Part shown: positions 12,681 to 64,000 of the stretch, piece after piece | Numbering within the stretch: the first letter of the stretch is position 1 | How the letters are laid out: every line of letters begins with the position of its first letter | Assembly: GCA_037442745.1 (NCBI GenBank) | Contig: JBBIPP010000005.1 | Location: forward strand, 24,741-88,740 | Length of the DNA stretch: 64,000 bases | Direction: 5' to 3' | Source of the DNA: an archaeon | GTDB lineage: Archaea; SpSt-1190; DYHY01 | Notes under the pieces: generated by a model | The model's input: only the letters and a program-made list of their open reading frames with translations | Told to the model about the DNA's origin: nothing | Database searches by the model: none | Translations under genes and position numbers: made by a program

Positions 12681-12758
12681 TGGTGGGGTCGCTGGGATTT
12701 GAACCCAGGTCTCAAACACCCCAAGCTTGAAGCCTAGACCAAGCTAGCCGACGACCCC
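12681..12758 (-). tRNA. tRNA-Pro (anticodon GGG), CCA encoded
   Basis: Acceptor GGGGTCG/CGACCCC, T-arm CTGGG-TTCAAAT-CCCAG, anticodon loop TTGGGGT with G37, 3-prime CCA present. Confidence 0.7.
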
Positions 12759-12899
12759 GTCAGTTTTAAATGTTCAGTTGTCGCCTAGGGATGCAACCGG
12801 AGATTTTTCCCGCTTTATAACAATATTCACGCAAGGTAGGGAATGACATAAGCTATGCGAATGAAATTATTATTCGAATTTTTCGGTCTTTTGAAAGGC

Positions 12900-14087
12900 C
12901 TAAGGAGGGCATCCCAATGCTATCAACGCCGAGTCCAATTTTGTGTTCTGGTCTGAGAGAAGAGGAATTACATTCTTCCCAGAATATGCGTTGAAAGCCG
13001 AGACCTGTGCTTGCCCAACACGCTCGTTCCCTTCGGCAAGAGGAGTCATACCGAGGAAAATATTCTCCGCAAGCCCGGTTGCCATGAGGCCAGCCCGCAT
13101 ATAGTCAACTACCTGCATGTCATAAGTATATTTGGCTGAATTGAGTTTAGCTTGGGCTTTGGCAACATCCCTTGCTTCCGCAGGAATTGTGAAATTGTCC
13201 ATCCAGACCTTTTGGAAAAAGGCTGGAATTTTCTCGAAAAAGGTGCCGTTGAGATATTGACGCTCAAGCTGCGCCCGCTCGGAAACCGTTGAATTGTATT
13301 CTGATTTCTGGAGGTCCAGCTCAGCCGTGAGAGTGGCTAGCTCCTCTCTCTTGGCTCCAAATCCAGCAAGTATTTCGGACTGGGCAACCTCATACTTCTG
13401 CAGTTCCGGAGATTTTCCTAGAGCGGAATCTGTCTCGGAAACTAGGAATCTCGATGCATCAATCAAATCCTGCATTTCCGGTCCAGAGTCAGGGAGGGCG
13501 GAGAAATTAACTGCCTGCCTGATGTCCTGAAGGCATTTTTGAGTTGCTTGTCCGATGTCCCCTGCATTGAAAAATGCCAAAGTCTCCAGAGAAACTGTCT
13601 TGTTGAACGTTGTCGGATCTGTCTGCCCTGCAAGTATTTTCCCGTATTTGTCAGCCTCCTGTAAATATGCATTTAGCCGGGTACAGCTATCTGACGGAAG
13701 AGCAGTCGTTCCGTCGAAAGGATATGCGAAAAGGAGACTCTCTCCTGCATTTGAGCGTTCAGTAAGTAGGTTTATTACCGCCTGCCGGTCGTCCTTATAA
13801 CCTTCTAGACGAACGCATGAATCCGCGAAATCCCCGGAGAGGTCACTCACTGGAAAATTCCTGTATTGGATTCCCGGGTCAAGATATTCCCCTCCATTCG
13901 AGGAATTCTGGTAAACAGAATATCCTCCGGCGGCAGTTCCGGCAAGTGCAAGGGCAAGCCCGGAATAAACAATTGCTTTGGAATATTTACTTTGAACGCC
14001 ATTCATCTCAAGAGAGTTCGCCAAAGAGTCAATAACTCTTTTAGCTTGCCTCGGGAGCGCCCTCAGACTCTGGACAAATCCGTTCAT
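12900..14087 (-). CDS. hypothetical membrane-anchored protein (N-in, large extracytoplasmic domain)
   Basis: Single TM helix AIVYSGLALALAGTAAGG after a ~35 aa basic N-terminus; no recognised domain. Confidence 0.45.
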   Translation of the reverse strand: MNGFVQSLRALPRQAKRVIDSLANSLEMNGVQSKYSKAIVYSGLALALAGTAAGGYSVYQNSSNGGEYLDPGIQYRNFPVSDLSGDFADSCVRLEGYKDDRQAVINLLTERSNAGESLLFAYPFDGTTALPSDSCTRLNAYLQEADKYGKILAGQTDPTTFNKTVSLETLAFFNAGDIGQATQKCLQDIRQAVNFSALPDSGPEMQDLIDASRFLVSETDSALGKSPELQKYEVAQSEILAGFGAKREELATLTAELDLQKSEYNSTVSERAQLERQYLNGTFFEKIPAFFQKVWMDNFTIPAEARDVAKAQAKLNSAKYTYDMQVVDYMRAGLMATGLAENIFLGMTPLAEGNERVGQAQVSAFNAYSGKNVIPLLSDQNTKLDSALIALGCPP

Positions 14088-37263: not shown

Positions 37264-38550
37264 AAAACACTCACACGGGAACGCAAGACGGAAATCTCCA
37301 ATAGACTGCCAAAGAAGGAAACTGGAAGAACTTATTCAATCCCCCCCTCTTCCCCACCAATTCATGTTCTGTTCGGCCGACATTCGGGGAGTTTCCACGC
37401 GTTCCATTCATTTTTGCTGAAATTTCATGAAAACTTCAAATAATCCAGTGAATTATTTATTGACTCAATAAGGCTTTTTATTTAGAAAAATCGTTTTATG
37501 TCCAAGTTTAATGTATTCCTCAACTTCGTTATTGGGTAATTCAATGGAGGGCTTTTTCTGCATTTTATTCGGCAAGCAAATAGCGTGTCCCGAACTGGAA
37601 ATAACAAACAATGGCGAAGAATGCGCTTCCCTAGCAAATACTAAAATGGTCGAGAGAATTCTGTTATGTGTTTTGGATATTTGAAGGAAAGGGGAATATT
37701 CATCTATGTTCTTTAGGGAGGAAGTTATCATTTTTCCGCGCGCGTCTTGTGTTGGTGCCGCTTTTAGGAAACCACAAGTAAAGTTCCCAAGCAACCATTT
37801 TGAACGAATTCGGCGATATGCAGACCGCTCAATCCAAATTTGCTATTCGGAATCTTTGTCCGCAAGTTGCTTCTCTTTCTTTGATTATTTTTTAAGAGCA
37901 AATCAAATTTGAGCAAGAACACGAATTTCTTTGTCCTGTATTTGCTTCTAATAACTGGCCAATTGGCCTTTTTCTTTGCTCAACAATCAATTCTTTTGTT
38001 TCTTCATTGCCTAAGAAAGCCAATTCTCTGTTCTTGAATTTTTTAACAAAATAAATTATTTCATCTTTTGACAAGATGAGCTTCTCTCTGGTTGCTCCTT
38101 CCATTAAATAGGTAGAATAACTATAAGAATCAACAATCACCTATTTAGAAAATATCCAGGTGTTCTTCCAAATAAATCGCGAGACCGAACGGATTATCGT
38201 CGAGGATTGTTGCGCTTCCGGAAGAACGAGCAAGTTGTTTATATCTACAGGTTCACCTATATGCTTGTCAAATATTCGCATATTGTTGGAATCAATGACA
38301 AAGTTAAACTCATCTAATCAAAAACCTATTTGCTCAGAAGAGCTTTCTTAACATCCAGAGGCTGGTTCTTTGGAGAAAGAAGCTCAACATAATGAAAATA
38401 GTGACTTGATTGTATAACTTTTTATCAAATTTCCTTGTTTGAAAACTCTTTTAAACCAGAAAAAACCTCCTACTCATAGGTCTGGCGGAATGGATAACGC
38501 CGCGCCAGAACCGGTAGACTATTCGGCGTACCAAATAGGTGTACAGAAAA

Positions 38551-47275: not shown

Positions 47276-47930
47276 GTGGCTGCGCTCATGATTGGCGCTG
47301 ACGGGGTTCTCCTGAAAAAGGGCGCCCTCTTCAGCGAAGGGCTTTCTGTCCGCCAAAAAATCCCGAAAACGAAAATAAACGCATTCTTCAATGAGTTCAG
47401 GGACTTCCTCGTTGGGCGGGCGGATGTTTCGGAAAAAATCAAGAAATGTCTCAATTACTTGGACTGGAATGGTTCAGTTGAGTGGCTTCTTTCGTTCTGG
47501 CACGGGGAAATTGAGCCGGGCGCATCCCTTTTCAAATGGGCGCTCTCAGCCGGGAAAAGGAGTGTTTTGGTGTTTCTCGCAAAAAACAACGACAAAAGAA
47601 GGGCGGAATCTTTATCGAAAAGTCTGGGGCTTAAAGAAGTTCGATGGAGTCCTCTCGTCTGCATCTCTTTGGGCAATGAAGCCGGAAAGGGATTTTTGCA
47701 GGAAAGCCCTCGGCGTTCTCGGGGAGATTCGCCGGGGTATTTTGAAGAGCCAAATACTCCTTGTTGACGACGACCTGAAGAATGTCCTTGGCGCAATGGA
47801 GGTCGGGTTCTGGGAAATCCGCTACTCGAGCTTTTCAGACTTCTCAAAAACTCTCAAGAAAAAATCCCGGAACTCGTTACTTGATTTCAATCCCGAGGGG
47901 CGTTGCCTCGAACTCTATCCAGTCTGTTAG
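47276..47930 (+). pseudogene. HAD-superfamily hydrolase-like protein with apparent frameshift near 47700
   Basis: N-terminal IGADGVLL (degenerate motif I) and C-terminal ILLVDDDLKNVLGAMEVGF (motifs III/IV) lie in different frames. Confidence 0.3.
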
Positions 47931-48569
47931 GACTTTTCCCGTTGGTCTCCTCGGCACCCTGAAATAGTCCCGCCCCCCTTCGCTCTTGAACTCAATTGTG
48001 GCGTCAGTCAGATGCTCGAGAGTGGTTATTACCCGCTCGTCATGCATCCCCGCCTCTATTGAGAACAGCGTTGTTGCTCCCAATCCCTTCAGGCGGGCGC
48101 CCATTACCTGTATGAACCTGAACACAATGTCTGCGTTGTTGTAGAGGACAAGGGTTGAGAGGGAATGGAAAGACATTCGGGAGTTCGCCCCCGGTTTTGA
48201 AATCTCAGAGAGCGCTCTTGACACTGCAATTGATAGCTCGTTTAATGAAGAAGGTCCGGGAACTATGATATCTGAATTCCTTCCTTCTGGCATCTTCTGC
48301 TGGAGCGCCCAGGAATAGCAGTCAACGAATTTTGCCCTTGAGAGATCCATTCCGAAGGATAAAGCCCGCTTCTCAAGATCGGCAGGCGAATTGTCAGTCG
48401 TAACATATGCGCAAGGTTCGCCAATCTTTGTTCCATATGCCAGGAATTGGGAGAGGAACAGGTCTTTTTTCGAGGAAGGGGAGCCTATAACTAGGAAATT
48501 GGTTTTCTCGGAAAAGCCCCCATCAAGGAGCTCGTCAAATTTCCCTATCCCTATTTTCAAAAAGAGCAT
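47877..48569 (-). CDS. KaiC/RecA-superfamily ATPase-like protein (FlaH/KaiC-like single domain)
   Basis: FDELLDGGFSEKTNFLVIGSPSSKKDLF (P-loop-like, slightly degenerate) and RecA-like core; 230 aa. Confidence 0.55.
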   Translation of the reverse strand: MLFLKIGIGKFDELLDGGFSEKTNFLVIGSPSSKKDLFLSQFLAYGTKIGEPCAYVTTDNSPADLEKRALSFGMDLSRAKFVDCYSWALQQKMPEGRNSDIIVPGPSSLNELSIAVSRALSEISKPGANSRMSFHSLSTLVLYNNADIVFRFIQVMGARLKGLGATTLFSIEAGMHDERVITTLEHLTDATIEFKSEGGRDYFRVPRRPTGKVLTDWIEFEATPLGIEIK

Positions 48570-48581
48570 TTCTCTGTTAAT

Positions 48582-48956
48582 TCACCCCAATTTCAATGAT
48601 ATTTTCTCGCTCGCCCTGCCCATTTCGAGGAGCACTAGGCCAAGATTCCCTGTTGGTCTCACAAGGCAGACTAACAGAGCCTGGTTTCCGGCAGGAATTG
48701 CGATTAGTTTCCCCTTTTCTGATTCGACTATTATCTGCGGGAATTTCCCGAGATTAAGCTCTCCTGCGGAAGTCTCGGCAGTTCCGACAATTGCGGCTGA
48801 CATTGCTGCAATTGTCCGGGAGTCTATTTTCGTGGAAAGGGAGGAGGAAATCATTAGCCCGTCCTTTCGGGCAATTGCAGCCCCTTGGATGTCTCCGAAT
48901 TCCTGGAGGTGCGCAAGTACAGTTTCAAGCTCTTTCTGTTTCTCTTCCAGTCCCAT
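48582..48956 (-). CDS. roadblock/LC7 (MglB-like) domain protein
   Basis: IQGAAIARKDGLMISS ... AAMSAAIVGTAE ... LLVCLV..NLGLVLLEM, typical Roadblock fold signature. Confidence 0.65.
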   Translation of the reverse strand: MGLEEKQKELETVLAHLQEFGDIQGAAIARKDGLMISSSLSTKIDSRTIAAMSAAIVGTAETSAGELNLGKFPQIIVESEKGKLIAIPAGNQALLVCLVRPTGNLGLVLLEMGRASEKISLKLG

Positions 48957-48958
48957 TT

Positions 48959-50158
48959 TCAGGCAGTCCCTCCGGGAGCCTTTCCTTCATTCTTAAATCC
49001 TATTATCAGGTCAAAAAGGGCGACAAGAGTGTCGAAAATCCCAGTTCCGTCAAGGGCAATTGTCCGTATTAAGGGAACTCTTGGGGAAATTGAGAGGGCT
49101 TTTCTGATTTCTTCCGATTCGATTGCGCCTTCAAGGTCGCTTTTGTTCGCTGCAACAACGAAAGGAAGCCGCCCTCCGGAAACAAGGTAAATCATTTCCC
49201 GCGCCCTTTGGAAAGATTCCCGGTCAGTCGAATCGACAACGAGAATTACCCCGAAAGTGTCCCTCGCAAGTATTGGGAGAATGAAGTTGAACGCCTCCTG
49301 GCCGGGAGTCCCGAACAAGTCTATTGAAAATCCCTTGTATTCAACATATCCGTGGTCAAGGGCAACTGTTGTTCCTAGCCTGTCGACTGAGACTGCCTTT
49401 GTCGAGATTTTGTGTATGAATGTTGACTTTCCCGAGTGGTAGGGGCCTGTGACAATCACTTTCGGGACATATAGGGAAATCCCTCCGCCTGTTGACGAAA
49501 CCTTGAACGGTATGTGGAGGTCCTTTCTTGATGAAACAGTATAGAAGCTCCTCTCAATGAAATTCTCCTCAACTGAATCTATTGTTATTGTGCAAGGGAA
49601 AAGATTGCATAGGCTTTTTGCGAGCAAATCGTCCTCTTCGGTAATTCTTGGAAAGAGAAAAATCGGGCACATTCCGCCCTGTGCGGATTTTTCCATTAGC
49701 GCAAGTATTTGCTCGGTCAGTTTTTTGTCGCCTTCGTTGAAGAAGCCGGACGCAAGGGAATCGAAAACAATCAGCTTCGAGCCTGTCTTTTCCGAATATT
49801 CTGGGATAATTCCGCTCATTTCCGAGAGGGATTTCACTGAAGTGATTCCCTCCTCAGCCCCGCCTGACGGGAAAATCCCCAGGTTCGCGGAATATGCGTC
49901 AATGAACTTGAGGTTTGCCGGATTGAATGCAAGCCTCATTGACAAGAGTCTCTCTCGGACGAATGACGGCATTTTGTCGGAAACGAAATATGTGCAAGGG
50001 ACGCTCTTCGACGCTTCCGCAACAATCTGCTGGCCGAATACCTCAACATCCGAGCCCAAGGATCCAGTTATTAGGACTGGGCTTTTCAGGGAGAGCCCTC
50101 CGCCCAAAAGCTCGTCCATTTTCGGTATTCCTGTTCTGATAATTGAGTCAGCCGTCAT
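48959..50158 (-). CDS. fusion protein: KaiC/RecA-like (degenerate Walker A) N-domain plus Ras-like small GTPase C-domain
   Basis: N-domain GIPKMDELLGGGLSLKSPVLITGSLGSDVEVF lacks GK[ST]; C-domain has G1 GPYHSGKST, G3 DLFGTPGQE, G4 NKSD (MglA/Arf-like). Confidence 0.65.
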   Translation of the reverse strand: MTADSIIRTGIPKMDELLGGGLSLKSPVLITGSLGSDVEVFGQQIVAEASKSVPCTYFVSDKMPSFVRERLLSMRLAFNPANLKFIDAYSANLGIFPSGGAEEGITSVKSLSEMSGIIPEYSEKTGSKLIVFDSLASGFFNEGDKKLTEQILALMEKSAQGGMCPIFLFPRITEEDDLLAKSLCNLFPCTITIDSVEENFIERSFYTVSSRKDLHIPFKVSSTGGGISLYVPKVIVTGPYHSGKSTFIHKISTKAVSVDRLGTTVALDHGYVEYKGFSIDLFGTPGQEAFNFILPILARDTFGVILVVDSTDRESFQRAREMIYLVSGGRLPFVVAANKSDLEGAIESEEIRKALSISPRVPLIRTIALDGTGIFDTLVALFDLIIGFKNEGKAPGGTA

Positions 50159-50159
50159 C

Positions 50160-50558
50160 TCAGAGAGTTCCCTCCGCGAGAATCTGGGAAACCTTGTTTG
50201 CAACCCGCCCCATTTCAAGAAGGACGAGCCCGAGGTTCGCCCTGTCGCTCACAAGGCATATCAAAAGGGCGAAACTGCCCGCCCCAGTTGCAATTAATTT
50301 TCCCTTTTCAGCCTCGACAACAATCTGGAGGAACCTTCCAAGCTGGAGTTCGGCAGAGCAGGTTTCCGCCGTTCCGACAAGGGCAGCCGACATTGCGGCA
50401 ACCATTTTTCCGTCCGTTTCCTTTGGAAGGAGGGATGCTACCATTAGTCCGTCCCGCCGGACAACTGCGACACCTTGAATTTCTGGAAGAGTCTCTAGGA
50501 AAGCGAGGACATCCTCCAATTGCTTTTCAATTCCGGGTTTCTCTGAAACAGCTTCCAT
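50160..50558 (-). CDS. roadblock/LC7 (MglB-like) domain protein
   Basis: IQGVAVVRRDGLMVAS ... AAMSAALVGTAE ... LLICLV..NLGLVLLEM. Confidence 0.65.
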   Translation of the reverse strand: MEAVSEKPGIEKQLEDVLAFLETLPEIQGVAVVRRDGLMVASLLPKETDGKMVAAMSAALVGTAETCSAELQLGRFLQIVVEAEKGKLIATGAGSFALLICLVSDRANLGLVLLEMGRVANKVSQILAEGTL

Positions 50559-50939
50559 CTAACCAGCCCCCTTGCCTGGCTCCTTGACGAAACTGTTGTT
50601 TAACTCTAAAAGCCAGTTGGGAAGAAGATCTTGACAGCTACTCGGCTCGACAATTTTGGATTTGCAGGGCTTGTCCAATCCTGAACAGGCACGTCCGGCG
50701 AGTGTTTTTGCAACAGGCCCGATTATTTTCACATAAAGGTTGACGAATGCGTCAACGCCTTCTTTTGAAAAATCCTCCGGAACTGTTATTTTTCCGTCTT
50801 TTGAGGCTGATACTCCCTTGAGAGACCCGGCAAGAGTATATGCAGTTCTCCCTATTATTTTGGCAACATTTTCGGCAATTGCCGAGCAGAGGGAATTGTA
50901 AAAACGGGTTTTCTCTTCAGCGGAAAGTTCCATTGGCAA
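50559..50939 (-). CDS. small Cys-containing hypothetical protein co-operonic with the GTPase/roadblock genes
   Basis: 126 aa; Cys at CSAI, RACSGLDKPCKSK, SSCQD; abuts the upstream roadblock gene. Confidence 0.4.
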   Translation of the reverse strand: MPMELSAEEKTRFYNSLCSAIAENVAKIIGRTAYTLAGSLKGVSASKDGKITVPEDFSKEGVDAFVNLYVKIIGPVAKTLAGRACSGLDKPCKSKIVEPSSCQDLLPNWLLELNNSFVKEPGKGAG

Positions 50940-51047
50940 TTTGGAACAGATATTAACAAAATCTTTATTTATATTTTGTTAATTGGCTCTTTTTAACAAG
51001 AATTCGTGAAATAAGCATTTCCTAGTGGTTTGATTCCTTTTTGAATG

Positions 51048-51881
51048 TTAAAATGAATTCAGTTTGACATTCAATTTCGCTTTCAGGTCATAATAATTCT
51101 CCTCGTCAATCTCGCCTGCGAAATATTTGCGGGTAAGTTCTGATAGCGTTCCTTCGACTTTTTCAGGCGCTTCGGTTTTTTTTGCATAACTGACGAGAGC
51201 CTCGGAGAGTTCTTCAATATCAGAAATTGCCTGTTTGAAATTTGTGTTAATTTCGGAATATTCTTGTATAAGTGCCAATTTTTCGTCAATTTTCCCCAAT
51301 TCTCTTATTATTCTGGATTTAATATCATAATAGCTTGAATCAGATGCAAGTCCGTTAAGATGCTCTTTTTCAAGAGTGAAGAGCGCGTTTTCGAGCTCAT
51401 CCTTGCGCTTAATTTGAGAATCTATTGAAAGTTCTCCAATTATTGAAGCAAGAAGGAGAATCTGTTTTGAGAAAAAGTCAATTATTTCATTTTTTGGCCG
51501 ATTTTTCTTTCCAAGAGAATATTTGAATTTAGATTCCCCCAAGGAGAACTCTGGAATGCTGGAATCGTCAGTTGAAAAGTTTTTGGTCCTATTCAAGGCC
51601 GCCGCTTCGAAATTTCTTTTGTCTCGTTCCAGAAAACTTTTTTCGCTACCTTCAGAGTTTCCGACAAAGTTCTCCTTGAGGAGTTCAGTGACGGACTTGC
51701 TCATATTAGGCTCCCTTTTCGGGTCCGGAAAATTGGGAGGTTCCTTTTGGTTGATTAGGGAAGTTCTTTTCACTTCTTTGGGTTCACCAATAGGTTCCTT
51801 GGAGGAAGAAACTGCTGTTTTCAAGTCAATCAGACTTTGGGGTTTGGTAAATTTGTTTAGAAATTTATCTGACGGGTTCAT
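51048..51881 (-). CDS. coiled-coil protein with SHOCT-like C-terminal tail
   Basis: Low-complexity N-half, heptad-rich C-half, ends ..YFAGEIDEENYYDLKAKLNVKL. Confidence 0.45.
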   Translation of the reverse strand: MNPSDKFLNKFTKPQSLIDLKTAVSSSKEPIGEPKEVKRTSLINQKEPPNFPDPKREPNMSKSVTELLKENFVGNSEGSEKSFLERDKRNFEAAALNRTKNFSTDDSSIPEFSLGESKFKYSLGKKNRPKNEIIDFFSKQILLLASIIGELSIDSQIKRKDELENALFTLEKEHLNGLASDSSYYDIKSRIIRELGKIDEKLALIQEYSEINTNFKQAISDIEELSEALVSYAKKTEAPEKVEGTLSELTRKYFAGEIDEENYYDLKAKLNVKLNSF

Positions 51882-52366
51882 TCAGTCTCCTGCTCCCCTC
51901 CCGAAGATTTTTCCGACATACCAGAGTTCAATATGAAAAAGCTCACTCTTCCCTCTTTTTCTTTGGAAATTGCTGATTTTCTAGTAAGAGAATTAAGCAC
52001 TTCGCTTGTTCTGGTCCTAGAAAGGCCCGAAAGAAGAGAAGCTTCAGGAGCGCTTATTTTACCGCTTTTTTTAACAAGATCAAATATTGCTCTTTCAACC
52101 TCATTAAAATCCGGCTCTTTTTTCTTTTTTGAAACAGGTTTTTCAACAGTTTTTGTCAAAAGTTCAAGATTTTCAAGCTTTTCTCTTACCTGAAGCAATT
52201 GGTGGTTTGAATATGCAACAGAATCGGAAGTGTGTTTCATTTGTCGATCAAGTTCCTCAAAACGGGCCAGAATAAGTGATTTAAGTTCCGACAAATCCCG
52301 TTCAATTTCATCGAATCCGACGGCTTTCTTAAAGAAACTTGACGGCGGATTAAGCTGTTCGGGCAT
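51878..52366 (-). CDS. coiled-coil plus winged-helix (HTH) DNA-binding protein
   Basis: ERAIFDLVKKSGKISAPEASLLSGLSRTRTSEVLNSLTRKS resembles a TrmB/MarR-type wHTH; overlaps the downstream gene by 4 nt. Confidence 0.45.
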   Translation of the reverse strand: MPEQLNPPSSFFKKAVGFDEIERDLSELKSLILARFEELDRQMKHTSDSVAYSNHQLLQVREKLENLELLTKTVEKPVSKKKKEPDFNEVERAIFDLVKKSGKISAPEASLLSGLSRTRTSEVLNSLTRKSAISKEKEGRVSFFILNSGMSEKSSGGEQETE

Positions 52367-52730
52367 TATTTATTCTACCTAGAGCTATTCTAACATCCTT
52401 TTATTTATCTATTGTGTTACAACTATCGACAGGTATTTAGCCATTGAGTAGTTCTTCCGACATATTGAAAGGTATTACCAAAGTTTTGAATGTTCAAAGA
52501 TTTCGCGTATCGGGACTTGAAATTCAGGCTTTATTTGACGGAGAATTAGCCAGGAAAAAGCAGTTCTTCAAACGTCAAGATGTGTCGAAAAACATGTTTT
52601 AAAAAAAGCTAAAAATTCCAACTATCTAAAGTGCTAATAAGGGAGGCTATAAGTTCTTAACTGAATCTTCTAAAAACCTATCTGTTCATTGGAGGACGCC
52701 AGTTATGTACAATTCAAACAATAAAACGGT

Positions 52731-52850
52731 GTTCGACAAATAAGACTCTTTGGACACATATGGACACATTGAGGTTTCTAGTAATCAAATAAAACACCCA
52801 TTAATTTGTTTAATTGGCAGTTTCGACACATTATTAATCTGACGAACAAA
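52731..52850. promoter_or_regulatory. AT-rich intergenic region with iteron-like direct repeats (YGRACAMAT-like)
   Basis: gttcgacaaat, tggacacatatggacacatt, tttcgacacatt and gacgaacaaat lie within 120 bp, inside a 520-bp AT-rich spacer between divergent operon halves. Confidence 0.4.
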
Positions 52851-52889
52851 TTAACTCCAGTTCAACAATAGGGCGAATAATCAGCCGTC

Positions 52890-53657
52890 TTATCGGTATC
52901 TCAACCAATTGACAACTCTTTCAAGAATATATTTCTCTTTGTATTCAATTTCACATAACCAGGAAGCAATTTTTCTGTAACTTTCAACTGTTTTAGAATT
53001 TGGCCGATAATAAAGCAATACTTTTCGTTCAGACAGTGCTTTGTGTATGTTGGTATCGAAAGGAATTTTGCCAACAACGGGAAGATCTGTAAGAGTCTCA
53101 ATTTCAATTGAAGAAAATTCATGGCCCTTATTATGAATCATATTAACAACAACACCCAAAGGAGTTCTATTGTATTTTTGGATTAATTTATGGCATCTCA
53201 TAATGTCGACTGCTGACGGAGCCTGAGGAATTGTGACGAACAGGGCTTCGTCACATGCTTTCATTGTAACAATTGCTTCTCTCCCAAGACCTGCTGCAGC
53301 ATCAAGAAAAACAAAATCAGCTTTCTTGACCAGTTTTTTCACAACTTTCTCTAGGTCAATTAAATCAACTCCCTTGAGATCGTTAACTGAAAGACCGGCC
53401 GGAATAACGCTCATTCCACTTTTATGTTTGTAGATTGCATCCTCAAGATTAGCTTTGCCTTGCAGAACTGTGTTAAGAGTAACTGGCGTATCATATAGTC
53501 CCAAATAAAGGCCAAGATGCGATGTTGTGAAATTACAGTCAAGAACAACAACATTCTTTTTGAATTCTTCAGCAAGAACTGCTCCGAGGTTTGCAACAAG
53601 AGTTGTTTTTCCAACTCCGCCCTTGCCACTAATTACCCCAATTATTCTTGTATTCAT
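52890..53657 (-). CDS. MinD/ParA-family ATPase
   Basis: Deviant Walker A GKGGVGKTT; 255 aa; low-GC. Confidence 0.8.
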   Translation of the reverse strand: MNTRIIGVISGKGGVGKTTLVANLGAVLAEEFKKNVVVLDCNFTTSHLGLYLGLYDTPVTLNTVLQGKANLEDAIYKHKSGMSVIPAGLSVNDLKGVDLIDLEKVVKKLVKKADFVFLDAAAGLGREAIVTMKACDEALFVTIPQAPSAVDIMRCHKLIQKYNRTPLGVVVNMIHNKGHEFSSIEIETLTDLPVVGKIPFDTNIHKALSERKVLLYYRPNSKTVESYRKIASWLCEIEYKEKYILERVVNWLRYR

Positions 53658-53658
53658 T

Positions 53659-54954
53659 TCAATTCGTCTGGCCTTTTATTTGGTTTATTTTTCGTTGAAG
53701 TTCCTCAAGTTTCCGCTCGTTTCCCATCTTCAGTTCAGAGTAGCTTTCAGCTGAAATAAAACCTTGTTTGTATTCCCTTTCAAGAATTAAGAGGATTTTC
53801 CTGACTTTGGAAAGCTCAGTTTCAAGGGAATTGATGTTCAGATCTTGACTGTCAAGAAGATCCTTTATTCTCCGAAGACTTGCCATATCCCCTTCCAAAC
53901 TGCGCAATTTTTCGATTTGAACTGCTTTTTCATTGTTCTGAGCCCGTTCCTGGAAAATTTCGGATTGGGGTTGTTTCGAAAGGATTGGAGAGCTTTCCCG
54001 TTCAAAAGAGTCTGCCTTTTCTTCGAAAGTTCTGCGGGAAATTGAAATCCGTTCCTCTTCCTCTTTTTCGCTGTTCGCTTCCTGGTAAATCATTGCTTCC
54101 CGCTCGCCCGCAGTCTGTCTTTTCAGGAAACGGAAATTTTCATCCATTCTTACCTCGGGTTGGGGTATTGGAGCTTCTTTAAAGCCAATCTTTCTCATTA
54201 CTCTTGTAAAAAAGGTTGTGCGTTCTTTGTATTTTTCATTAACAAGCTGACCTGCCAGTTTGAAGAAAACTTGGGAGGACTCGCTTTTCGGAAAATATTG
54301 GACAATTGGAACCCGGTGGGCAATTGACGCAGGAATCCTGACTTCGTCTGGAATTACGGCCAAAACAGGAACTCCGCAAGTTGTCTCAATTTCGTTCACG
54401 CTTGTCTCGAATTTCTGTCGTTTGTATTCATTCACAACAATTCCCTTTATCGGGATTTGGAGCTCTTTTGCAGTTTCAATTACCTTTATTGCCCCTGCAA
54501 TTGAGGGGACTTCGGGCGTTGTGACAATAACTAGTTCATCGCAGGCATGCATTGCCGCCTTCACTTCGGCGCCAACTCCTGCCGCGCCGTCAACAAGAAT
54601 TACGTCATAGTTGTCAACAAGATGGTAGAGCTTGTCCCGCAGTTTCTCATAATACGCCTTTCTTTTTATTGAAAGGGAGGAGGGAATTACGTGGAGTCCT
54701 GATTCCTGGATATATACAGATTGGGCTGGAGCGACTCGGTCGTCCAAAACATCGTGGAGAGTTGTCGGGGGGTAGAGAAAGCCCAAATGAAGCCCGAGAT
54801 TGGCTGAAGTAACGTTTCCGTCAACAACAAGGACTTTTTTCCTGAACTCCTTTACAAGCGCGAGGCCGATATTCGCGGTAAGCGTTGTTTTCCCGACCCC
54901 GCCCTTGCCGGAAACAATGCCAATTATTTTAGCTCTGTCCAAGGGAATTGCCAT
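53659..54954 (-). CDS. MinD/ParA-family ATPase with ~170 aa C-terminal coiled-coil/SHOCT-like extension
   Basis: GKGGVGKTT Walker A, complete ATPase domain, then a charged coiled-coil ending ..QGFISAESYSELKMGNERKLEEL. Confidence 0.8.
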   Translation of the reverse strand: MAIPLDRAKIIGIVSGKGGVGKTTLTANIGLALVKEFRKKVLVVDGNVTSANLGLHLGFLYPPTTLHDVLDDRVAPAQSVYIQESGLHVIPSSLSIKRKAYYEKLRDKLYHLVDNYDVILVDGAAGVGAEVKAAMHACDELVIVTTPEVPSIAGAIKVIETAKELQIPIKGIVVNEYKRQKFETSVNEIETTCGVPVLAVIPDEVRIPASIAHRVPIVQYFPKSESSQVFFKLAGQLVNEKYKERTTFFTRVMRKIGFKEAPIPQPEVRMDENFRFLKRQTAGEREAMIYQEANSEKEEEERISISRRTFEEKADSFERESSPILSKQPQSEIFQERAQNNEKAVQIEKLRSLEGDMASLRRIKDLLDSQDLNINSLETELSKVRKILLILEREYKQGFISAESYSELKMGNERKLEELQRKINQIKGQTN

Positions 54955-55057: not shown

Positions 55058-55435
55058 ATGAGCTATTTTTCTGGCTTGCTCGCGGGAATTTCAAAAAACC
55101 CGTCCAATATTTATCAGTTCCTCCCTATTTTGGGCCTTGCCCTATCCAAGTCTGCCGGGCTTGCTATTTTCTTCTCAATTATTGGAACCGCCCTCGGCCC
55201 AGAAAGATGTGCGTTGGTTTCAAGCTATATGAACAAACACCTGAAATCGTCCGAGAGGGCAGCCGCAATTTCCACAGTATCAATGGCAAAAACGGGCGGG
55301 ATTGCTTTTGGGAACCTCATTATCGGAAGATTGACTGCAATTCTCCCGGGAAAAATTGTTCTTATTGGTCTTGGGTTGCTAGCAATTGCATTCTCCATTT
55401 TCTTCCAAGTTGAGGAGAGTAATCTCAATGAATAG
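55058..55435 (+). CDS. MFS-transporter-like C-terminal fragment (possible gene remnant)
   Basis: 125 aa with ~4 TM helices and MAKTGGIAFGNLIIGRL; too short for a full 12-TM transporter. Confidence 0.3.
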   Translation: MSYFSGLLAGISKNPSNIYQFLPILGLALSKSAGLAIFFSIIGTALGPERCALVSSYMNKHLKSSERAAAISTVSMAKTGGIAFGNLIIGRLTAILPGKIVLIGLGLLAIAFSIFFQVEESNLNE

Positions 55436-55467
55436 AAATTTATAAAAAAACTGCTACTTTCTGCGAA

Positions 55468-57252
55468 ATGGCCGATGAACCCAAATTTTATCTTACCTCT
55501 ACAGGGTGCCTCAGTCTGCGCATGGACACCACTCGCCTATTTACCTATCTGAAAAGAAACGGATATAAAGAAACTAAATCCGCAAAAAATGCTGAAAAAA
55601 TAATAATAACTACATGCATTGTCACCAAATACAAAGAAAGCCATTCTTTGGGCCTGATAAAAAAACTCCTACGCGACAATCCAAAAGCAAGAATAATTGT
55701 CGCTGGTTGCGGGGCAAAAACAGAACAATTGAACAAAAAACTGAAAAATGTTTCGTATATAAATACTTGGGAGTTGTTTGAACAGGAGTTTCCCGGAAAA
55801 ACCAGTTTGTCTGAAATAGGGTATTTGGGAACTCCTGAAGATCTCAACTACACCCCGCCATACCTAAAAAAAGGCCTCTTCGAGCACTATGCGTCTTTTG
55901 AGAGGACTCTCTTTAGGATGGGGGGCGAAATTTTTTCTGACTTTTTCAGGTATGGAACGCAAGGAATTGAATTCATAGATGAGCCTTCTCCGAGCTACCG
56001 AGTCGTAGTATCGACCGGATGTCCTTACAGCTGTTCTTATTGCATAGTGCGTTTTCTTAGGGGAAAGTATACAAGCGTGCCAGAAAAAAGCATATTAGAC
56101 CAGATTGGACGCGGTTGGAAAAAAGGATACAGAAAATTCTTGCTAATTGCCGATGATTTGGGTTTTTACGGCTACGACCTCGAAAAAAGGAGGTTGATTG
56201 GCAGACTCCTTTCAAAAATATTCTCAAAATTCCCAACGGCGCGCCTCGCCCTTCGGTATCTTGAGCCGATGGACCTTCCTTACATTTGGAAAGATTTGTC
56301 GAAGCATCTTAGAAGTGGCAGAATTTTTTATGTAAACATCCCGATCCAAACCGCATCCAAAAAACTTCTCCTAAGAATGAACAGGAGAACTCAGAACAAG
56401 TCATTGGAATTGATAAGAAATTTGCGCAATAATTTTTCTGGTTCAGCAATAACCCACATAATGACCGGGCATCCCGGGGAAACTCCCAATGATTTGAGAA
56501 TAACATCTGATTTTTTGGAATCTGCAAAGTTCAGCGATGTAATAGTTCACAGATTCTCGCCCCGTCCAGGAACGCCATTGGAAAAGGCATGTCCTTCAAG
56601 AACTGTTAAAGAGGGGTATGGCGTTCTCCTTAACAACGCAAAGAAGAACCGCGTCGACAGATTCAAGGAATTTTTTTCGTTAAATCCGACAACAAAGAAA
56701 AAGTTGGGGGGAAGGGAAGTCGAATATCGTTTCAGAGAGAAAACAATCCCTGCGGAGTTTCTCAAGAAAATCAAGTTTTCCGGAAAAGTGTCCCAACAAG
56801 ACATTGTCCTTATGCATCCTTCGGAAGACGGTTTTGTGGCCAGAATACGGAAAGAGGGCGCTGGGTTTTTCCTCCAATTCAAGGCGCGAAAGAGTGAGAA
56901 TTTCTGGAATGAGTTTTCAGTGAAGGTCCATAAAAAAGAGGCTCTCTCGGCATACAAGGTCCTCTCGGAATTCATGGAGCCGGTCGCATCCGTCCGAAAA
57001 ATGAGGAGTTCCGGGGCTTTTTCCGGTGTGAAAATATTCCGGGATTCGGTCTTTGGGATAGGAAATTTCGTGGAATTCGAGTCGGATGAGGAAAAGAAGG
57101 TCGCATCACTTCTAGCCAGAATTGGTCTAGAAAAAAACTGTTCTCTTCCTCCATACGGGAAAATTTTAAACGAAAATCTTTCAAAAAAATCCCTTGCTCT
57201 TGAAACTAGGAGAGCGGTTAAAGCCCTTTTCGCGGAAGAGTTGGGAAAATAG
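55468..57252 (+). CDS. radical SAM methylthiotransferase (MiaB/MtaB-like) with long C-terminal extension
   Basis: MTTase N-domain (LTSTGCLSLRMD..TTCIV..AGCGA), radical SAM CPYSCSYC, then ~200 extra residues. Confidence 0.7.
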   Translation: MADEPKFYLTSTGCLSLRMDTTRLFTYLKRNGYKETKSAKNAEKIIITTCIVTKYKESHSLGLIKKLLRDNPKARIIVAGCGAKTEQLNKKLKNVSYINTWELFEQEFPGKTSLSEIGYLGTPEDLNYTPPYLKKGLFEHYASFERTLFRMGGEIFSDFFRYGTQGIEFIDEPSPSYRVVVSTGCPYSCSYCIVRFLRGKYTSVPEKSILDQIGRGWKKGYRKFLLIADDLGFYGYDLEKRRLIGRLLSKIFSKFPTARLALRYLEPMDLPYIWKDLSKHLRSGRIFYVNIPIQTASKKLLLRMNRRTQNKSLELIRNLRNNFSGSAITHIMTGHPGETPNDLRITSDFLESAKFSDVIVHRFSPRPGTPLEKACPSRTVKEGYGVLLNNAKKNRVDRFKEFFSLNPTTKKKLGGREVEYRFREKTIPAEFLKKIKFSGKVSQQDIVLMHPSEDGFVARIRKEGAGFFLQFKARKSENFWNEFSVKVHKKEALSAYKVLSEFMEPVASVRKMRSSGAFSGVKIFRDSVFGIGNFVEFESDEEKKVASLLARIGLEKNCSLPPYGKILNENLSKKSLALETRRAVKALFAEELGK

Positions 57253-57263
57253 CATAAATACCA

Positions 57264-58331
57264 ATGAGGTATTCTCTCGCAACAATGGCGCAGAAACGCG
57301 AGAAAAGAAAATCCTTGTCCGAACTAGAGTTTCCAAAGAATTCCTCTCAGGAGGAAAAGATCAGGCACATTCTGGAATATGCAGTTCTCGCTCCTTCAAC
57401 CCTCAACTCCCAGCCATGGAAATTCAAAATTGAGGGCTCGAGAGTCTCATTCCTGGGAGACTTTTCCAAGGAAATGAAGGCAGTTGACCCAGAAAGAAGG
57501 CAGATACATTTCTCCCTCGGGGCAGTTGTCGGGAATTTCCTCGTTGCCTTGGACAAGTTCGGTCTCTCAGCAAAAGCTGAATTCCCTGAAGAAGGGTTTG
57601 CAGCTGCAATTGTTACTGTCGGATTCCCTGAAACCCATAATGGGGAGGAGCATGCGGAGGTCTCGGGAGGGATTTTTCCCCCAGAAATGTTCCACTCAAT
57701 TGAGAGAAGGGCAACATCCCACGCAATTTTCAAGAGGGAAGAAATTCCTGAGGAGGTTCTCATGCATCTTGCAGGGGCGGTTGTTGGCGGAGAGGGGATT
57801 CTCCTTTCTTTGATAACGGGAGAAATGCCAAAAGCCAAAGCTGGGGAAATTGTCAGGAATTCCCAGATAAAGCTCGGGGAATCAAAGGACTATAGGAAGG
57901 AAACATCGGCATTGATTAGGCACTCCTATTCCGCGCACTTGGACGGGAAAGTTTTTGGATTCTCCGGGCCATTGAGCCTTCTCAATTCCCGCCTTGCCAG
58001 GACTCGCTCTTTCTGGAAGAGGGAGGGAGAACGGCTTGAAAAACGCTTTTCCCAGGCACCCTTGGTCTGCGTTCTCTCAACTGAAAAGGATTTGAGGCAG
58101 TCTTGGATTAGGGCGGGAATTGCATTTGAGCTTTTCTCGCTCACTGCGACTGCCATTGGCTATGAAATTGAAGGAACGTTCGCCCCTATTGAGGACAAGG
58201 AGAGAAGAAGCGAACTGAAAGCCCTGATTGAGCAGGAAGGATTTCCCCAGATTGTCCTCCGGGTTGGAACCGGGGAGAAATTGACTGGGAAGACTCCGAG
58301 AAAGCCTGTTGAGGAATTCTTGAGTGATTAG
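57264..58331 (+). CDS. nitroreductase-family flavoprotein
   Basis: LAPSTLNSQPWKF nitroreductase signature; two-lobed length. Confidence 0.6.
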   Translation: MRYSLATMAQKREKRKSLSELEFPKNSSQEEKIRHILEYAVLAPSTLNSQPWKFKIEGSRVSFLGDFSKEMKAVDPERRQIHFSLGAVVGNFLVALDKFGLSAKAEFPEEGFAAAIVTVGFPETHNGEEHAEVSGGIFPPEMFHSIERRATSHAIFKREEIPEEVLMHLAGAVVGGEGILLSLITGEMPKAKAGEIVRNSQIKLGESKDYRKETSALIRHSYSAHLDGKVFGFSGPLSLLNSRLARTRSFWKREGERLEKRFSQAPLVCVLSTEKDLRQSWIRAGIAFELFSLTATAIGYEIEGTFAPIEDKERRSELKALIEQEGFPQIVLRVGTGEKLTGKTPRKPVEEFLSD

Positions 58332-58926: not shown

Positions 58927-61900
58927 TTAATCTTCGCCAACGCCCAGTTCCTTGTCCAAAACAGCAAGCTTCCTCTCGTTGTTGTTCTTCAATTCCGAGT
59001 AGGTGGAGTCCGATATCAGCCCTTCCTTGTGCTGGCTCTCAATAAGTTTCAGCGCCTTTTTCACCCGCTCCCTCGTCCTGATAAGGTCTGCAGGGGTCGA
59101 TTTCTTCACCTGTATTGCCTCCTTGATTTCCCTTGCAGCCTCTTTCTTGACAATTGTTCGGACCTTCCTCAAGGTCCTTGACACCCAGATTATTACGATT
59201 ATTCCCAGAATCAGTATCAGGAGGGCAATAAAATATGGGAATGCTGTCGCTGGGAGAATCAGGGAAATCACAGGAGTTGTTGGCTGGGCTTTTTGGGGAA
59301 TTCTGTTCAGCTCGAACTCGGCCCTATCAAGGTAATTATGCGCCTTCCTTATTGCGTCCCCGGCGTTCCGAAGAGCCCCCTCATCTACGAACTTTCCGGC
59401 AGTCTCTATCTGGAGCTTGCCTTGCGCCATTATGTCAATTACGTCAGTGACATTTTTGCCGTTCTCCATTGCTATTGAGAGAATGTCCTCAAGCTCTCCG
59501 TACCTTCCCTTTAGGAACTGGATTTCGTAAAAGAGGCGCTCCCTCTCTGACGCAAAAACTGATATTGCTGTTATTTTCGAGGAATTGGCCTCTTCTGAGA
59601 AGGCGTTGATTGTCAGGGGATAGACCTGCGCCTTGGCTTCGGTCGGGACAACAAGGCGGACAATGAATGTCGCAGTCCCGTCAGAGTCGAGGAAAGAGGC
59701 GTTACCGGACACTATCTCAATCCAGTCGGCAGACACCCCATCGAAGGTTATTGTTATGTTATGGAGCGTCTCAGTTCCGAGGTTCTGGACCTCGACATTG
59801 AAGAAACGGACTGAATTCCTCTCAACAAATAGGTCGCGCTCCCTCGGATAGTCAGATAGTGCAAGGCTGTATGTGGGTTTCGCTGGAATTGATGTTGTGG
59901 TTGTTGTTGTCGGTCCAGCAATTTCGAACACGTCATCCCCTTCGTCGTCGGGAATTGTTGTCTCAACAACCGGGTCAGTTACCATGAAAAGTGTGTTCGC
60001 AATTGCCGGGGAATCCGGCCCGTCATACTCTATCCGGACAGTCAGGTTGTGAATACCTTTGGTCTCGGAGAGGTATAGCTGAAAATTCCGGTAGTAGGTT
60101 TCCGTTGAAAAGGAAGGGATTTTCACCTCCTCTCTTGAGGAATATACAAGGCCGTTGTCAATCCAATATGTCATGTTGACATCGAACTGGTCGGTCGGCC
60201 CCATGTTCGTCGCGTTTATCCGGAACTTGAGATTGCTTCCGGCGGGAACCGGGGAATTTAGGACTTCAATTGAAACGTCGAACGGCCCGCCCTGAGTAAC
60301 CTCGAAAGGCCATGCGTCAAGAGTGCTTGTCCCCGCTTTCGTTGCGTTGAAGAGAGCGAAATAGTTGCCAGTAGTGTTGGTGTTAACTGTCGAGTAATAG
60401 TCATATAATCCGGCGCTCGAATGCGTGAAATTGGAGAGCTCGAGATATTTCCAGAGAATTGGGCCGAATTCTGTCACATAATAGAGGGAAATTGTCAGGT
60501 TATCAACGTCTATCGGGAGTCCGGTTGTCCTGTCAACTGTTATTGCGCCGGTGTGGAATTCCTTGTTTGTGTAAATCCGTGAGTTCATTTTTGGGATAAT
60601 TTGGAGAGGCTTGTCAGACTGCACAATGAATGAGCTGTTGCGCTGGAAATATAGCTCGGAGGAAATCAGGGGCTCGTAAAAGTTCGAGGGAGCATAAAGT
60701 GTATAGTTCGTCCCGTCAGGAGCTCCCGTTGGAATAATGAAAATTGATATCGGGGCAACTCCTGACGCGTCAGTTACAATGGGAACAGTTGTGACGTCAG
60801 AGAGAAAAGGAAGGAGTGAGCCGGACGGGTTCCTGACAGAGAGGTTTGAGGACACTCCTGAAAGGGGGGCTCCGAAAAAGTCGGTTGCCGAGAACTCGAC
60901 CGAGCCGAATGCCCCCGGCTTGTAGAGAGGTATCTCTGTTCTTGCAGTGAGATTCACGTGCGTATAGACTGTAAAGTTTCCTGTCGCGTTCCCGCTGCTC
61001 CCGATTCCGTCAGTTGCTGACACGAACGCCGAATAGTTGCCTTTCCTGATTGTGTTCGCCCAGGACGATGGAAAGGAGACAGTGTAGTTGAAAACCCATC
61101 CGCTGAGGGAATAGTGCGCGCCAGAGGGCGAAAGCTGGGTCGAATAAACTGTGGAGTTCGGGCCAGTAACATTAATCGAGGCTCCCGTAATATTTAGCCC
61201 GGAAAAGTCTGTGACGCTCGCGTTAATTGTCGTATATTCGCTCTGGGTAAAGTTGTCGGGGAAGAAATAAAGGAGAATTGAGGGTGGGCCTGTCCTCAGA
61301 TAGAACCACAATTGGTAAAACGACCAGTTCGCGAAATTGTCCGGGTGCTCTGCCGAGACGTTCACCGAATAGTTCCCGGCGGAAAAGCCGGCCGAATTCC
61401 AGGTGCAGTTGTAGAGGCCACCGGTCTCGTTCGCAACGCATACAAATGAGGTCAGGTTGAAAAGAGTGAAATTGAGGCTTGCCCCGGGAACGAATCTCGA
61501 GCACTCGTCTGTGACATTAGCTTCAAATGGCACGAAATCTCCTTGGGCGGGAGTAGAATACTGGGACGGGGCTAAAAGCTCCGTTCCAAGGTTCCCGACA
61601 ACCGAATATGTGAAAAGGGAGGAAGAATTCTCCTTGTAATAGGAGGAGCCGGAATAGTTCGCTTTCCAGGAAACCTCCCCGTGTGGAATAAGGCAGTCCG
61701 GGTCGAACTCCGCTGTCGCGTTCCCGTCGCTTTCAGTATAGTTCCAGCCTGCCAAGAGCCACCCTGATGAGAAGCTGTCAGTCCAGAACGACAAATTCTC
61801 GCCTGGAATTATTGTCCCGTTGTCAATGTCATATAGGCTTGCTCCGAAAACAACTGTTCCAGCTCCCGGTCTGACAACCGGGCTTCCGGAAATGGAGAGG

Positions 61901-63527: not shown

Positions 63528-64000
63528 AATGGGAATTCTCGACAAATTGAGGGAAATTGGAGCTAATATTTCTGACAAATTCCCCAAAATAAGGTTCAAG
63601 AAAGACGATGTTGGGGGGCCCCGGGAAGAAATTCCTTCGGTTGATATCCCTCCAGTTGAAGAGCCAAAGGCCCGGGCTGGAGGAACTTATTCTACAAAGG
63701 CTGAAGAGAAGCCAGCCATTGCCGAAATCGTCCCAGCCACTCCCTTGTCTGAAAAACCAATGCCTGCGCCTGAGGAAAAGCCGATTGAGAACCCTGAAGA
63801 AAAGTTCTTCTCCGCAATTGACAGGTTCTCCTTGGAAGATCTCCGGAAAAGAAAGTCGGATCTCGAAAAAATGCTCAAAGTTGCGGATGAAGAACTCTCG
63901 GCCGGAATAATAACCGAAGGCAGTTATAACGAGATACGGAAGAACGCCGGGGAGAAACTGAGGGAAGTTTCGTTCGAATTAAAAGCGGTCGAAAAGCTCC
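63528..64000 (+). CDS. hypothetical protein, partial at window end, with SHOCT-like segment
   Basis: ATG at 63528; Pro/Glu-rich middle; ..SAGIITEGSYNEIRKNAGEKL motif; truncated by the window. Confidence 0.35.

Follow-up and report, generated by a model that had tools for sequence, protein, structure and literature searches.

What are two tandem MinD-type ATPase genes doing in an archaeal genome next to a repeat-bearing spacer and small coiled-coil proteins, and why does one of them share its C-terminal tail with a very large surface protein encoded a few kilobases away? This question is raised by a 64,000-nucleotide stretch of contig JBBIPP010000005.1 (hereafter the window), in which an earlier note had seen both a plasmid-type partition cassette on a low-GC (guanine plus cytosine) island and a system that positions a surface structure from inside the cell. 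The gene layout described there is correct, i.e. the tandem MinDs (here MinD-long and MinD-short), a 523-bp spacer, a winged helix-turn-helix (wHTH) protein (wHTH162) and a coiled-coil protein (CC277), all on the minus strand. We give an even chance to the reading that what is seen here is one lineage's version of an envelope-associated gene system conserved among DPANN-type archaea (tiny symbionts), in which a network of hairpins and the MinDs would assemble or position an envelope complex. The core of this system has four parts, namely a membrane HerA/FtsK-like P-loop ATPase with a glycosylated immunoglobulin (Ig)-like ectodomain, an all-helical cytoplasmic scaffold with one to three copies of the hairpin, a heavily N-glycosylated surface protein with a C-terminal transmembrane (TM) anchor and a short hairpin-bearing cytoplasmic tail, and an archaeal MinD ATPase with a terminal amphipathic helix. 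Extra hairpin carriers in this lineage are MinD-long, CC277 (two copies) and a small protein, p185. Below we report as observed which genes are present and in what order, that the modules are homologous and of restricted distribution, that the ATPases belong to MinD, and that the hairpin fold is predicted.

The hairpin is a helix-turn-helix module of about 50 residues, found in five copies in the window and in three more just beyond it. The tails of MinD-long and of the surface protein are 34% identical over about 77 residues (BLAST E 3.6e-8, in a small database), so that the short motif pointed out in the earlier note belongs to a real homologous module of about 50-75 residues, extending beyond a 20-residue motif. 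The four tails quoted there are present as written, the fourth in an open reading frame (ORF) which begins at 63529 on the plus strand and runs to 185 residues on the parent contig (p185), while a second copy in CC277 (residues ~155-205, additional to the C-terminal one) and the protein p612, with three copies past the window end, had been overlooked. According to the AlphaFold2 model of MinD-long the tail is a helical hairpin, consisting of a helix (341-396), a turn (397-401, QGFIS) and a second helix (402-430), with a predicted local distance difference test score (pLDDT) of 88-92.

By searching 1.84 billion cluster representatives with a profile of the module, we retrieved 251 representatives at E<=1e-3. 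Among the top 150 of these, scaffolds (44) and tail-anchored surface proteins (40, up to 2102 residues long) were the most common recognizable types, followed by MinDs (5), p185-like proteins (3) and CC277 (1, i.e. a single cluster at 50% identity); the remaining 57 were unclassified and mostly short proteins or fragments. The 40 surface proteins are homologues, with a TM helix located 50-70 residues ahead of the C-terminal module, and many small proteins among the module-bearing representatives are made up of one to four modules. The module is rare, with a distribution mostly restricted to the protein families of this system. A profile search of the PDB with the module gave nothing significant (best E 0.18), and a word-indexed homology search with an alignment of 20 modules gave no matches, the index being poorly suited to modules of 50 residues. 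Directly after the conserved Tyr, the tails of MinD-long and of the surface protein carry an identical residue in the window (SYSELK and TYSELK) and in the relative's locus L004 (SYEELK and TYEELK), but different ones in L003 (SYSELK and TYDELK) and L006 (SYRELR and TYQELK). Four lineages are too few for calling co-variation between the tails, and the match within genomes is anecdotal.

The tails had been said to fit SHOCT, a mostly C-terminal domain described as a pair of short amphipathic helices with a tight turn between them that contains a conserved Gly (PMC3581485). Pattern and predicted fold agree with this: the modelled hairpin has two amphipathic helices, a tight Gly turn and a mostly C-terminal location, and Gly and Tyr are conserved at >=90% in the module alignment A2. 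Membership is another matter. When the 20 module instances of alignment A1, taken from the window and its relatives, were scanned singly against Pfam, seven matched SHOCT (PF09851; best 26.1 bits, E 6.8e-6, in the second copy of P0013, against a gathering threshold of 27 bits), four matched SHOCT_2, and 11 matched GvpG (PF05120; threshold 30.6 bits) over profile positions ~28-67 only, with a top score of 23.5 bits in the CC277 tail. All of these matches are below threshold, so none of the 20 instances reaches the Pfam cutoff of any of the three families. The four tested tails of the window gave no SHOCT match even at E<=10, nor did the full proteins, and the only Pfam matches of the isolated tails were weak ones to GvpG and to the CdvA coiled coil. 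We regard the module as SHOCT-like in pattern and predicted fold, not as a SHOCT member, and a binding role for it as conjectural. The label "oligomerisation module" went too far, given that the experiment of the SHOCT-defining paper itself failed to support oligomerisation (PMC3581485).

Both ATPases are members of the archaeal MinD family. They match CbiA, ParA and AAA_31 in Pfam, share the deviant Walker A motif KGGVGKT (as SGKGGVGKTT), and pass the NCBIfam model minD_arch (TIGR01969; 213.5 bits for MinD-long and 218.1 for MinD-short, cutoff 201.75). By contrast, they fail ParA_partition (NF041546), with 44.4 and 52.6 bits, respectively, against a cutoff of 180, and fall far under the cutoffs of the SopA, RepA and PrgP models. 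K17, K22, D45 and D122 are invariant in an alignment of 28 MinD sequences, and public annotations name the proteins "cell division ATPase MinD". In the AlphaFold2 model of MinD-long the core has a pLDDT >90 and is followed by an amphipathic helix (248-255) and disordered linkers. An amphipathic helix also forms the C-terminus of MinD-short and of its orthologues, and the orthologues of both MinDs keep an amphipathic character after the core, which makes these helices candidate membrane-targeting sequences.

Orthologues of MinD-long at 44-54% identity retain the extension and the module, some with two copies of the latter, and orthologues of MinD-short (~50% identity) are located directly 3' of MinD-long in L004 and L006. 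The single MinD found in four-gene operons elsewhere resembles MinD-short (44-50% identity, 208-235 bits) more than MinD-long (37-41%, 130-167 bits). From this, MinD-short is the ancestral MinD of the system and MinD-long a paralogue that gained the hairpin in some lineages. The closest MinD relatives beyond the direct orthologues belong to Aenigmatarchaeota, Woesearchaeota and Nanoarchaeota, phyla that make the source organism most likely a DPANN-type archaeon.

The surface protein is a full-length orthologue of L004_1467 (35% identity over 1499 residues) and matches both ends of L006_565; in each of these two orthologues, too, the C-terminal end is made up of a TM helix, then a basic segment, then the module. 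Labels L003-L031 denote the loci of relatives, except that L008 is the start of the parent contig, just past window position 64000. Beyond p185 the parent contig encodes a 175-residue membrane protein and thereafter p612 (L008 158-1996), a protein of 612 residues with three modules situated just past the window end, which is orthologous to the scaffold (33% identity to L004_721, E 2e-88). Orthologues of scaffold, surface protein and MinD-short are found within about 14 kb on one contig, these being the three parts by which we recognize the four-gene system. AlphaFold2 predicts the scaffold to be all helical, with long helices at residues 65-286 and module hairpins at pLDDT >90. No significant PDB match to it was found by sequence profile, nor by Foldseek (best E 0.27). 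Filament chains of crenarchaeal CdvA recur in the Foldseek results at insignificant E values of 0.28-1.2 only, and we do not claim a CdvA relationship.

The gene order is conserved far beyond the close relatives. In L004/L005 and L006, representing independent lineages, the genes of the surface-protein orthologue, MinD-long and MinD-short are consecutive on the same strand and both tails are kept. Upstream of them is a coiled-coil protein with two to three modules (L004_721, L006_519), and further upstream a large protein whose glycosylated Ig-like ectodomain is combined with a TM helix and, on the cytoplasmic side, a P-loop domain of HerA/FtsK type. A metagenome scan seeded with the conserved central domain of the scaffold (trimmed alignment) added 21 loci. 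All scan loci of sufficient length carry, on one strand, a HerA-like ATPase, a scaffold with one to three modules and a tail-anchored surface protein with the module after its TM helix, and in 12 of the 21 a single MinD of ~252 residues follows directly 3' of the surface-protein gene. Together with L004 and L006 this amounts to 23 other loci from DPANN-type archaea, 14 of them with MinD directly next. The link between MinD and surface protein suggested in the earlier note is, as judged from this synteny, strongly supported.

The HerA-like family gave 429 matches at E<=1e-10, of which the named ones are from Aenigmarchaeota, Nanoarchaeota, Woesearchaeota, Pacearchaeota and Micrarchaeota, with DUF87 or hypothetical protein as the only public names. 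Its members combine a heavily N-glycosylated Ig-like ectodomain (up to ~2900 residues), one TM helix, a cytoplasmic HerA/FtsK-type ATPase and a C-terminal coiled coil. In one sub-clade (L013-L029, e.g. L019 1-7611) the core is preceded by a NosD/beta-helix surface protein (1284-1800 residues) and three small proteins negative in Pfam, and followed by DUF1512 and sugar epimerase genes. These flanking genes may reflect genus-level synteny or additional components of the system.

All physical interactions, membrane binding, DNA binding and the biological role we infer, as follows. The hairpins would bind one another or a common partner, and through this binding build a cytoplasmic lattice by which the surface protein is tethered and clustered from inside. 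The MinD ATPases would be held on the membrane by their amphipathic helices, dimerise there with ATP, and govern where, or whether, the complex assembles, in parallel to the action of TadZ, FlhG, BcsQ, VirC1 and Haloferax MinD4 on their cargos. Several observations weigh against this proposal. No MinD directly follows the surface-protein gene in L015, L017, L018 and L025, and in all 12 single-MinD loci the MinD lacks the hairpin, from which it follows that the hairpin is not a general means of coupling MinD to the complex. Within the window itself the MinD genes do not adjoin the surface-protein gene, ~4 kb of unrelated genes intervening. A homologue of the wHTH gene was detected only in the clade of the window and in L004/L005, not in L006 or L011-L031, and self-association found no support in the sole experiment made with a SHOCT domain (PMC3581485). 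Moreover, no homologue of the HerA-like gene was found in the window or L008, and the contig breaks off 157 bp upstream of p612, exactly where every other locus has the HerA-like gene, so that this organism may have an incomplete four-gene system. The break is perhaps an assembly problem at a long gene with repetitive surface domains.

Table 1. Positions of the genes and sequence elements discussed. Coordinates refer to the window unless a locus label is given.
Feature	Position	Strand	Description
CC277, 277 aa	51048-51881	-	Disordered N-terminal half, two hairpin modules
CC277 module 1	51264-51422 (residues ~154-206)	-	Match to the module hidden Markov model (HMM) starts at residue 155
CC277 module 2	51051-51179 (residues ~235-277)	-	Module HMM match starts at residue 236
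wHTH162, 162 aa	51878..52366	-	N-terminal coiled coil; winged helix-turn-helix at residues ~79-150
Spacer, 523 bp	52367-52889		AT-rich (GC 0.34), between the MinD genes and the wHTH gene
YSGACA core, 6-7 spacer copies	starts 52424, 52455, 52580 (inverted), 52731, 52749, 52759, 52821		Motif scan
MinD-short, 255 aa	52890..53657	-	Archaeal MinD
MinD-short terminal amphipathic helix	52893-52931	-	ILERVVNWLRYR; resembles a membrane-targeting sequence
MinD-long, 431 aa	53659..54954	-	Archaeal MinD core at residues 1-245, linker, long helices, C-terminal hairpin
MinD-long hairpin module	53662-53829 (residues ~376-431)	-	C-terminal
MinD-long amphipathic helix	54184-54216 (residues ~247-257)	-	Candidate TTFFTRVMRKIGF
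Variable insert	55058..58331	+	Major facilitator superfamily (MFS) remnant, MiaB-like radical S-adenosylmethionine (radical-SAM) enzyme, nitroreductase-like protein; between the surface-protein gene and MinD-long
Surface protein, 1481 aa	58927..63372	-	N-terminal signal-like hydrophobic segment, large ectodomain, Ig-like domains, 69 N-x-S/T sequons
Surface-protein hairpin module	58930-59088 (residues 1429-1481)	-	On the basic cytoplasmic tail
Surface-protein C-terminal TM helix	59164-59277 (residues ~1366-1403)	-	Followed by the basic cytoplasmic tail
p185, 185 aa on the parent contig	starts 63529, cut at 64000	+	Small cytoplasmic protein with a very basic C-terminus
p185 hairpin module, one copy	63835-63993	+	Gene divergent from the surface-protein gene
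HerA-like ATPase, examples	L004 1-3282; L006 1-2100; first gene of L011-L030, e.g. L018 3-9920 (3305 aa)

The low-GC segment noticed earlier was borne out by a full calculation in 500-bp windows: GC is 0.338-0.412 over 50750-54249, the minimum of the whole 64 kb, compared to ~0.47-0.52 in the flanks on both sides. At four-fold degenerate sites GC is 0.25 in MinD-short and 0.28 in wHTH162, while CC277 and MinD-long both have 0.47 and typical genes 0.50-0.58, so that by per-gene statistics the anomaly at synonymous sites is limited to the former two genes. The composition is accordingly as atypical as expected of a genomic island. Mobility genes, a tRNA border and a presence-absence pattern are not in evidence: there is no tRNA within 30 kb of the segment and no Rfam match near it either, and no integrase among the Pfam matches of the flanking genes scanned, where no search was made for direct-repeat borders or target-site duplications. 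Furthermore, identical gene order and low GC are found at the same locus in L010 (MinD-long 96% identical) and L009 (78%), the low GC being common to all three for MinD-short and, in L010, extending to the wHTH gene as well, while the syntenic orthologues in L004 and L006 have a GC normal for their genomes. The anomaly is thus real, yet old and clade-specific, and no recently acquired mobile cassette, and the island proposed earlier finds no support. It is possible that it stems from xenologous replacement in the clade ancestor, or from a local mutational or regulatory bias. A second low-GC patch is found at 37465-38140 on the minus strand, with ORFs of 109 and 82 residues (GC 0.38 and 0.32, four-fold GC 0.44 and 0.29, respectively).

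Within the segment, the stop codon of wHTH162 overlaps the start of CC277, and the two are for this reason probably translationally coupled. The wHTH protein matches Pfam TrmB below the cutoff (E 0.0016), and a three-sequence wHTH profile against the PDB retrieved the Lrp DNA-binding domain (E 4.3e-4) and, more weakly, BlaI and ArsR/HlyU-type proteins. A homologue (33% identity, E 7e-17) adjoins the MinD pair in L004/L005 on the opposite strand, and a CC277 orthologue was located only in the close relative L010. The repeats reported in the spacer do exist: TTSGACAMAT has five matches in the 64 kb, compared to 0.67 expected, and four of the five are inside 52580-52831. The shorter core YSGACA occurs at 11.5 per kb in the spacer and 2.2 per kb in the rest of the window, a roughly five-fold enrichment. 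In L004, a genome of very different base composition, the spacer of similar length upstream of the wHTH homologue (12612-13121) has seven copies (13.7 vs 1.9 per kb, about seven-fold) and is the densest YSGACA window of that locus. About five of the seven copies are retained in L010, where the spacer is about as conserved as coding DNA and hence uninformative for selection. We suggest that wHTH162 binds the YSGACA array and most likely acts as a local transcription regulator of the wHTH-CC277 unit. Since the wHTH is limited to two lineages and the array is located upstream of the wHTH gene itself, we favor the array as a candidate operator of such a regulator rather than a centromere.

How, then, do other explanations fare? 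That the region is a horizontally acquired partition cassette of plasmid type, a low-GC island in which a ParA-like ATPase would work with iterons as centromere and with the wHTH protein as the adaptor binding them, to segregate DNA or to tether a cargo to the nucleoid, was the first proposal of the earlier note. The GC dip, genuine even at the synonymous sites of MinD-short and wHTH162, and the adjacency of a Walker-type ATPase, a probable DNA-binding protein and a repeat array, reminiscent of SegAB and ParABS, do speak in its favor. However, the ATPases score as MinD and not as ParA, the array is placed like an operator (it precedes the wHTH gene and follows the MinD genes), the wHTH is missing from most loci of the system, and locus and composition are the same in L010 and L009, whereas GC is normal in distant orthologues, with no tRNA nearby and no integrase among the flanking genes scanned. 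Neither are there close relatives on mobile elements: none was found among viral contigs, and the best match in the plasmid database has just 32% identity and is itself annotated minD. We consider this explanation largely refuted and thus highly improbable. A somewhat better case, although still a poor one, can be made for generic cell-division MinDs that lie next to surface genes by chance, with the tails as coiled-coil or SHOCT decorations lacking a common function. Both proteins are, after all, true members of the archaeal family publicly named for cell division, and in the window their genes are separated from the surface-protein gene. Chance does not readily explain why 14 other loci from divergent lineages have scaffold, tailed surface protein and MinD genes in this order and on a single strand, nor the concentration of so rare a module in these families, and Haloferax MinD paralogues reportedly affect motility structures and cell shape, not Z-ring placement.

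The alternative that we take most seriously, while still finding it unlikely, concerns the task of the complex rather than its organization, and is compatible with MinD as the organizer. Here, the HerA/FtsK-type ATPase would drive a translocation or secretion machine, for DNA uptake or transfer (Ced, conjugation) or for protein export in the style of EssC/EccC and WXG100, with the hairpins as substrates or adaptors for the ATPase and MinD as an assembly or localization factor comparable to VirC1 or TadZ. The conserved operon does begin with a gene for a membrane protein whose cytoplasmic P-loop domain is of FtsK/HerA type (DUF87 in Pfam, E 3e-12 to 4e-13). The product of this gene in L019 passes the model T4SS-DNA_transf (21.4 bits, cutoff 20.1), and there are weak NCBIfam matches to CedD, TraB and TraD, but matches to specific translocases are far under their cutoffs, e.g. 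36 vs 600 bits for CedD. Numerous small proteins consisting of one to four modules would suit the role of substrates, and MinD/ParA-family ATPases accompany type IV secretion systems (T4SS) and Tad machines. On the other hand, modules on a tail-anchored membrane protein and on a scaffold of 500-700 residues are unlike substrates, no pilin, relaxase, VirB-like protein or channel component was recognized, and the gene of the ATPase is not seen in the window.

Some neighboring genes are of a different nature. The insert between the surface-protein gene and MinD-long is outside the system, as its interval differs among close relatives (an MFS gene and a metallophosphatase in L010, ~9 kb of other genes in L003) and is missing in L004 and L006, whose surface-protein and MinD-long genes are immediate neighbors. 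A 125-residue ORF at 55058-55435 on the plus strand, with weak matches to MFS_1 and VTT, resembles the 3' remnant of an MFS gene, of which L010 (393 residues), L009 (416 residues) and L003 have an undamaged version in the corresponding position. Apparently, the MFS gene was truncated upon arrival of the radical-SAM gene. Directly downstream of CC277 is a cluster of five genes on the minus strand (47877-50939), encoding a 126-residue protein, a Roadblock/LC7 protein, a fusion of KaiC-like ATPase and Arf/Ras-like GTPase (419 residues), a second Roadblock protein and a KaiC-like ATPase. This cluster is kept in L010 and is not beside the system in L004 or L006. Dip and Arco, described in two 2026 preprints, are oscillators of Ras-superfamily GTPases that position the archaeal divisome. 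They were rejected as a match for the MinD system, since they involve Ras-type GTPases and SepF-like proteins.

Attachment to host cells is the DPANN way of life, and the making, placement and use of their contact structures are poorly understood. Against this background the locus provides a candidate parts list for a surface apparatus of symbionts, its members marked by a private interaction module. It is also one of the few cases in archaea where a physical tie between a MinD-family ATPase and a particular cargo can be put directly to the test, and it offers a possible functional context for SHOCT-like modules. Tentatively, and with more doubt than confidence, we extend the envelope-complex reading to a DPANN-wide apparatus spanning the envelope, in which the hairpin would wire the surface protein and a HerA/FtsK motor with its own ectodomain to the scaffold and the MinDs. 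A contact structure would in this way be positioned or clustered from inside, with transfer across it perhaps being powered as well, and in these obligate episymbionts it could be the site of host attachment or exchange. Literature searches returned no description of this operon or module, nor of the system in work on DPANN with DUF87, HerA or FtsK; subscription literature was poorly covered, so an earlier comparative-genomic mention is possible.

Among known systems, the surface proteins proposed as S-layer anchor or for host contact in Nanobdella aerobiophila have a large glycosylated Ig-like ectodomain and a C-terminal TM helix, and the surface protein described here is, going by that description, like them in architecture (bioRxiv 10.1101/2023.10.27.564410). 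A term search of the same paper found neither a cytoplasmic tail module nor a linkage to MinD, scaffold or HerA described. The module itself is like SHOCT and the GvpG C-terminus in having a core of ~30 residues, usually C-terminal, with two amphipathic helices, a conserved turn Gly and an agreeing register G-x-I-[ST]-x3-[YF]-x3-[KR]. It differs from both in its length of about 50-75 residues, its long first helix and a conserved N-E-x-K-L extension, and from SHOCT, which is spread over many architectures, also in being found mostly within one gene system. As in SegAB and pNOB8 ParA-AspA-ParB, a Walker-type ATPase gene adjoins the gene of a small (here predicted) DNA-binding protein and short repeats. 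The ATPases are of the MinD family here, however, membrane and surface proteins make up the conserved partners, the repeats precede the wHTH gene, and no similarity of wHTH162 to SegB, AspA or ParB was detected. Type VII secretion (EssC/EccC, WXG100) also has a membrane ATPase of the FtsK/HerA superfamily encoded beside helical-hairpin proteins. This is an analogy only, as the sequences are unrelated, the ATPase of our system bears a large Ig-like domain outside the cell, and the hairpins are on the scaffold and the tail of a membrane protein.

The closest parallels are MinD/ParA ATPases that place envelope structures, i.e. TadZ/CpaE (Tad pili), FlhG/FleN (flagella), BcsQ (cellulose synthase), VirC1 (T4SS), ParC/PpfA (chemoreceptor arrays) and Haloferax MinD4 (archaellum and chemosensory arrays), the last of which has a long C-terminal extension too. 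Like these, the MinDs described here are MinD-clade ATPases with a deviant Walker A motif and a predicted amphipathic helix after the core, and share an operon with a membrane complex that they presumably organize. We know of no hairpin module shared by ATPase and cargo in systems of that type. Unlike in these, the cargo would here be an unrelated set of HerA-like ATPase, scaffold and tail-anchored glycoprotein, served in this lineage by two tandem MinDs, and the coupling appears to be achieved via a dedicated hairpin common to ATPase and cargo.

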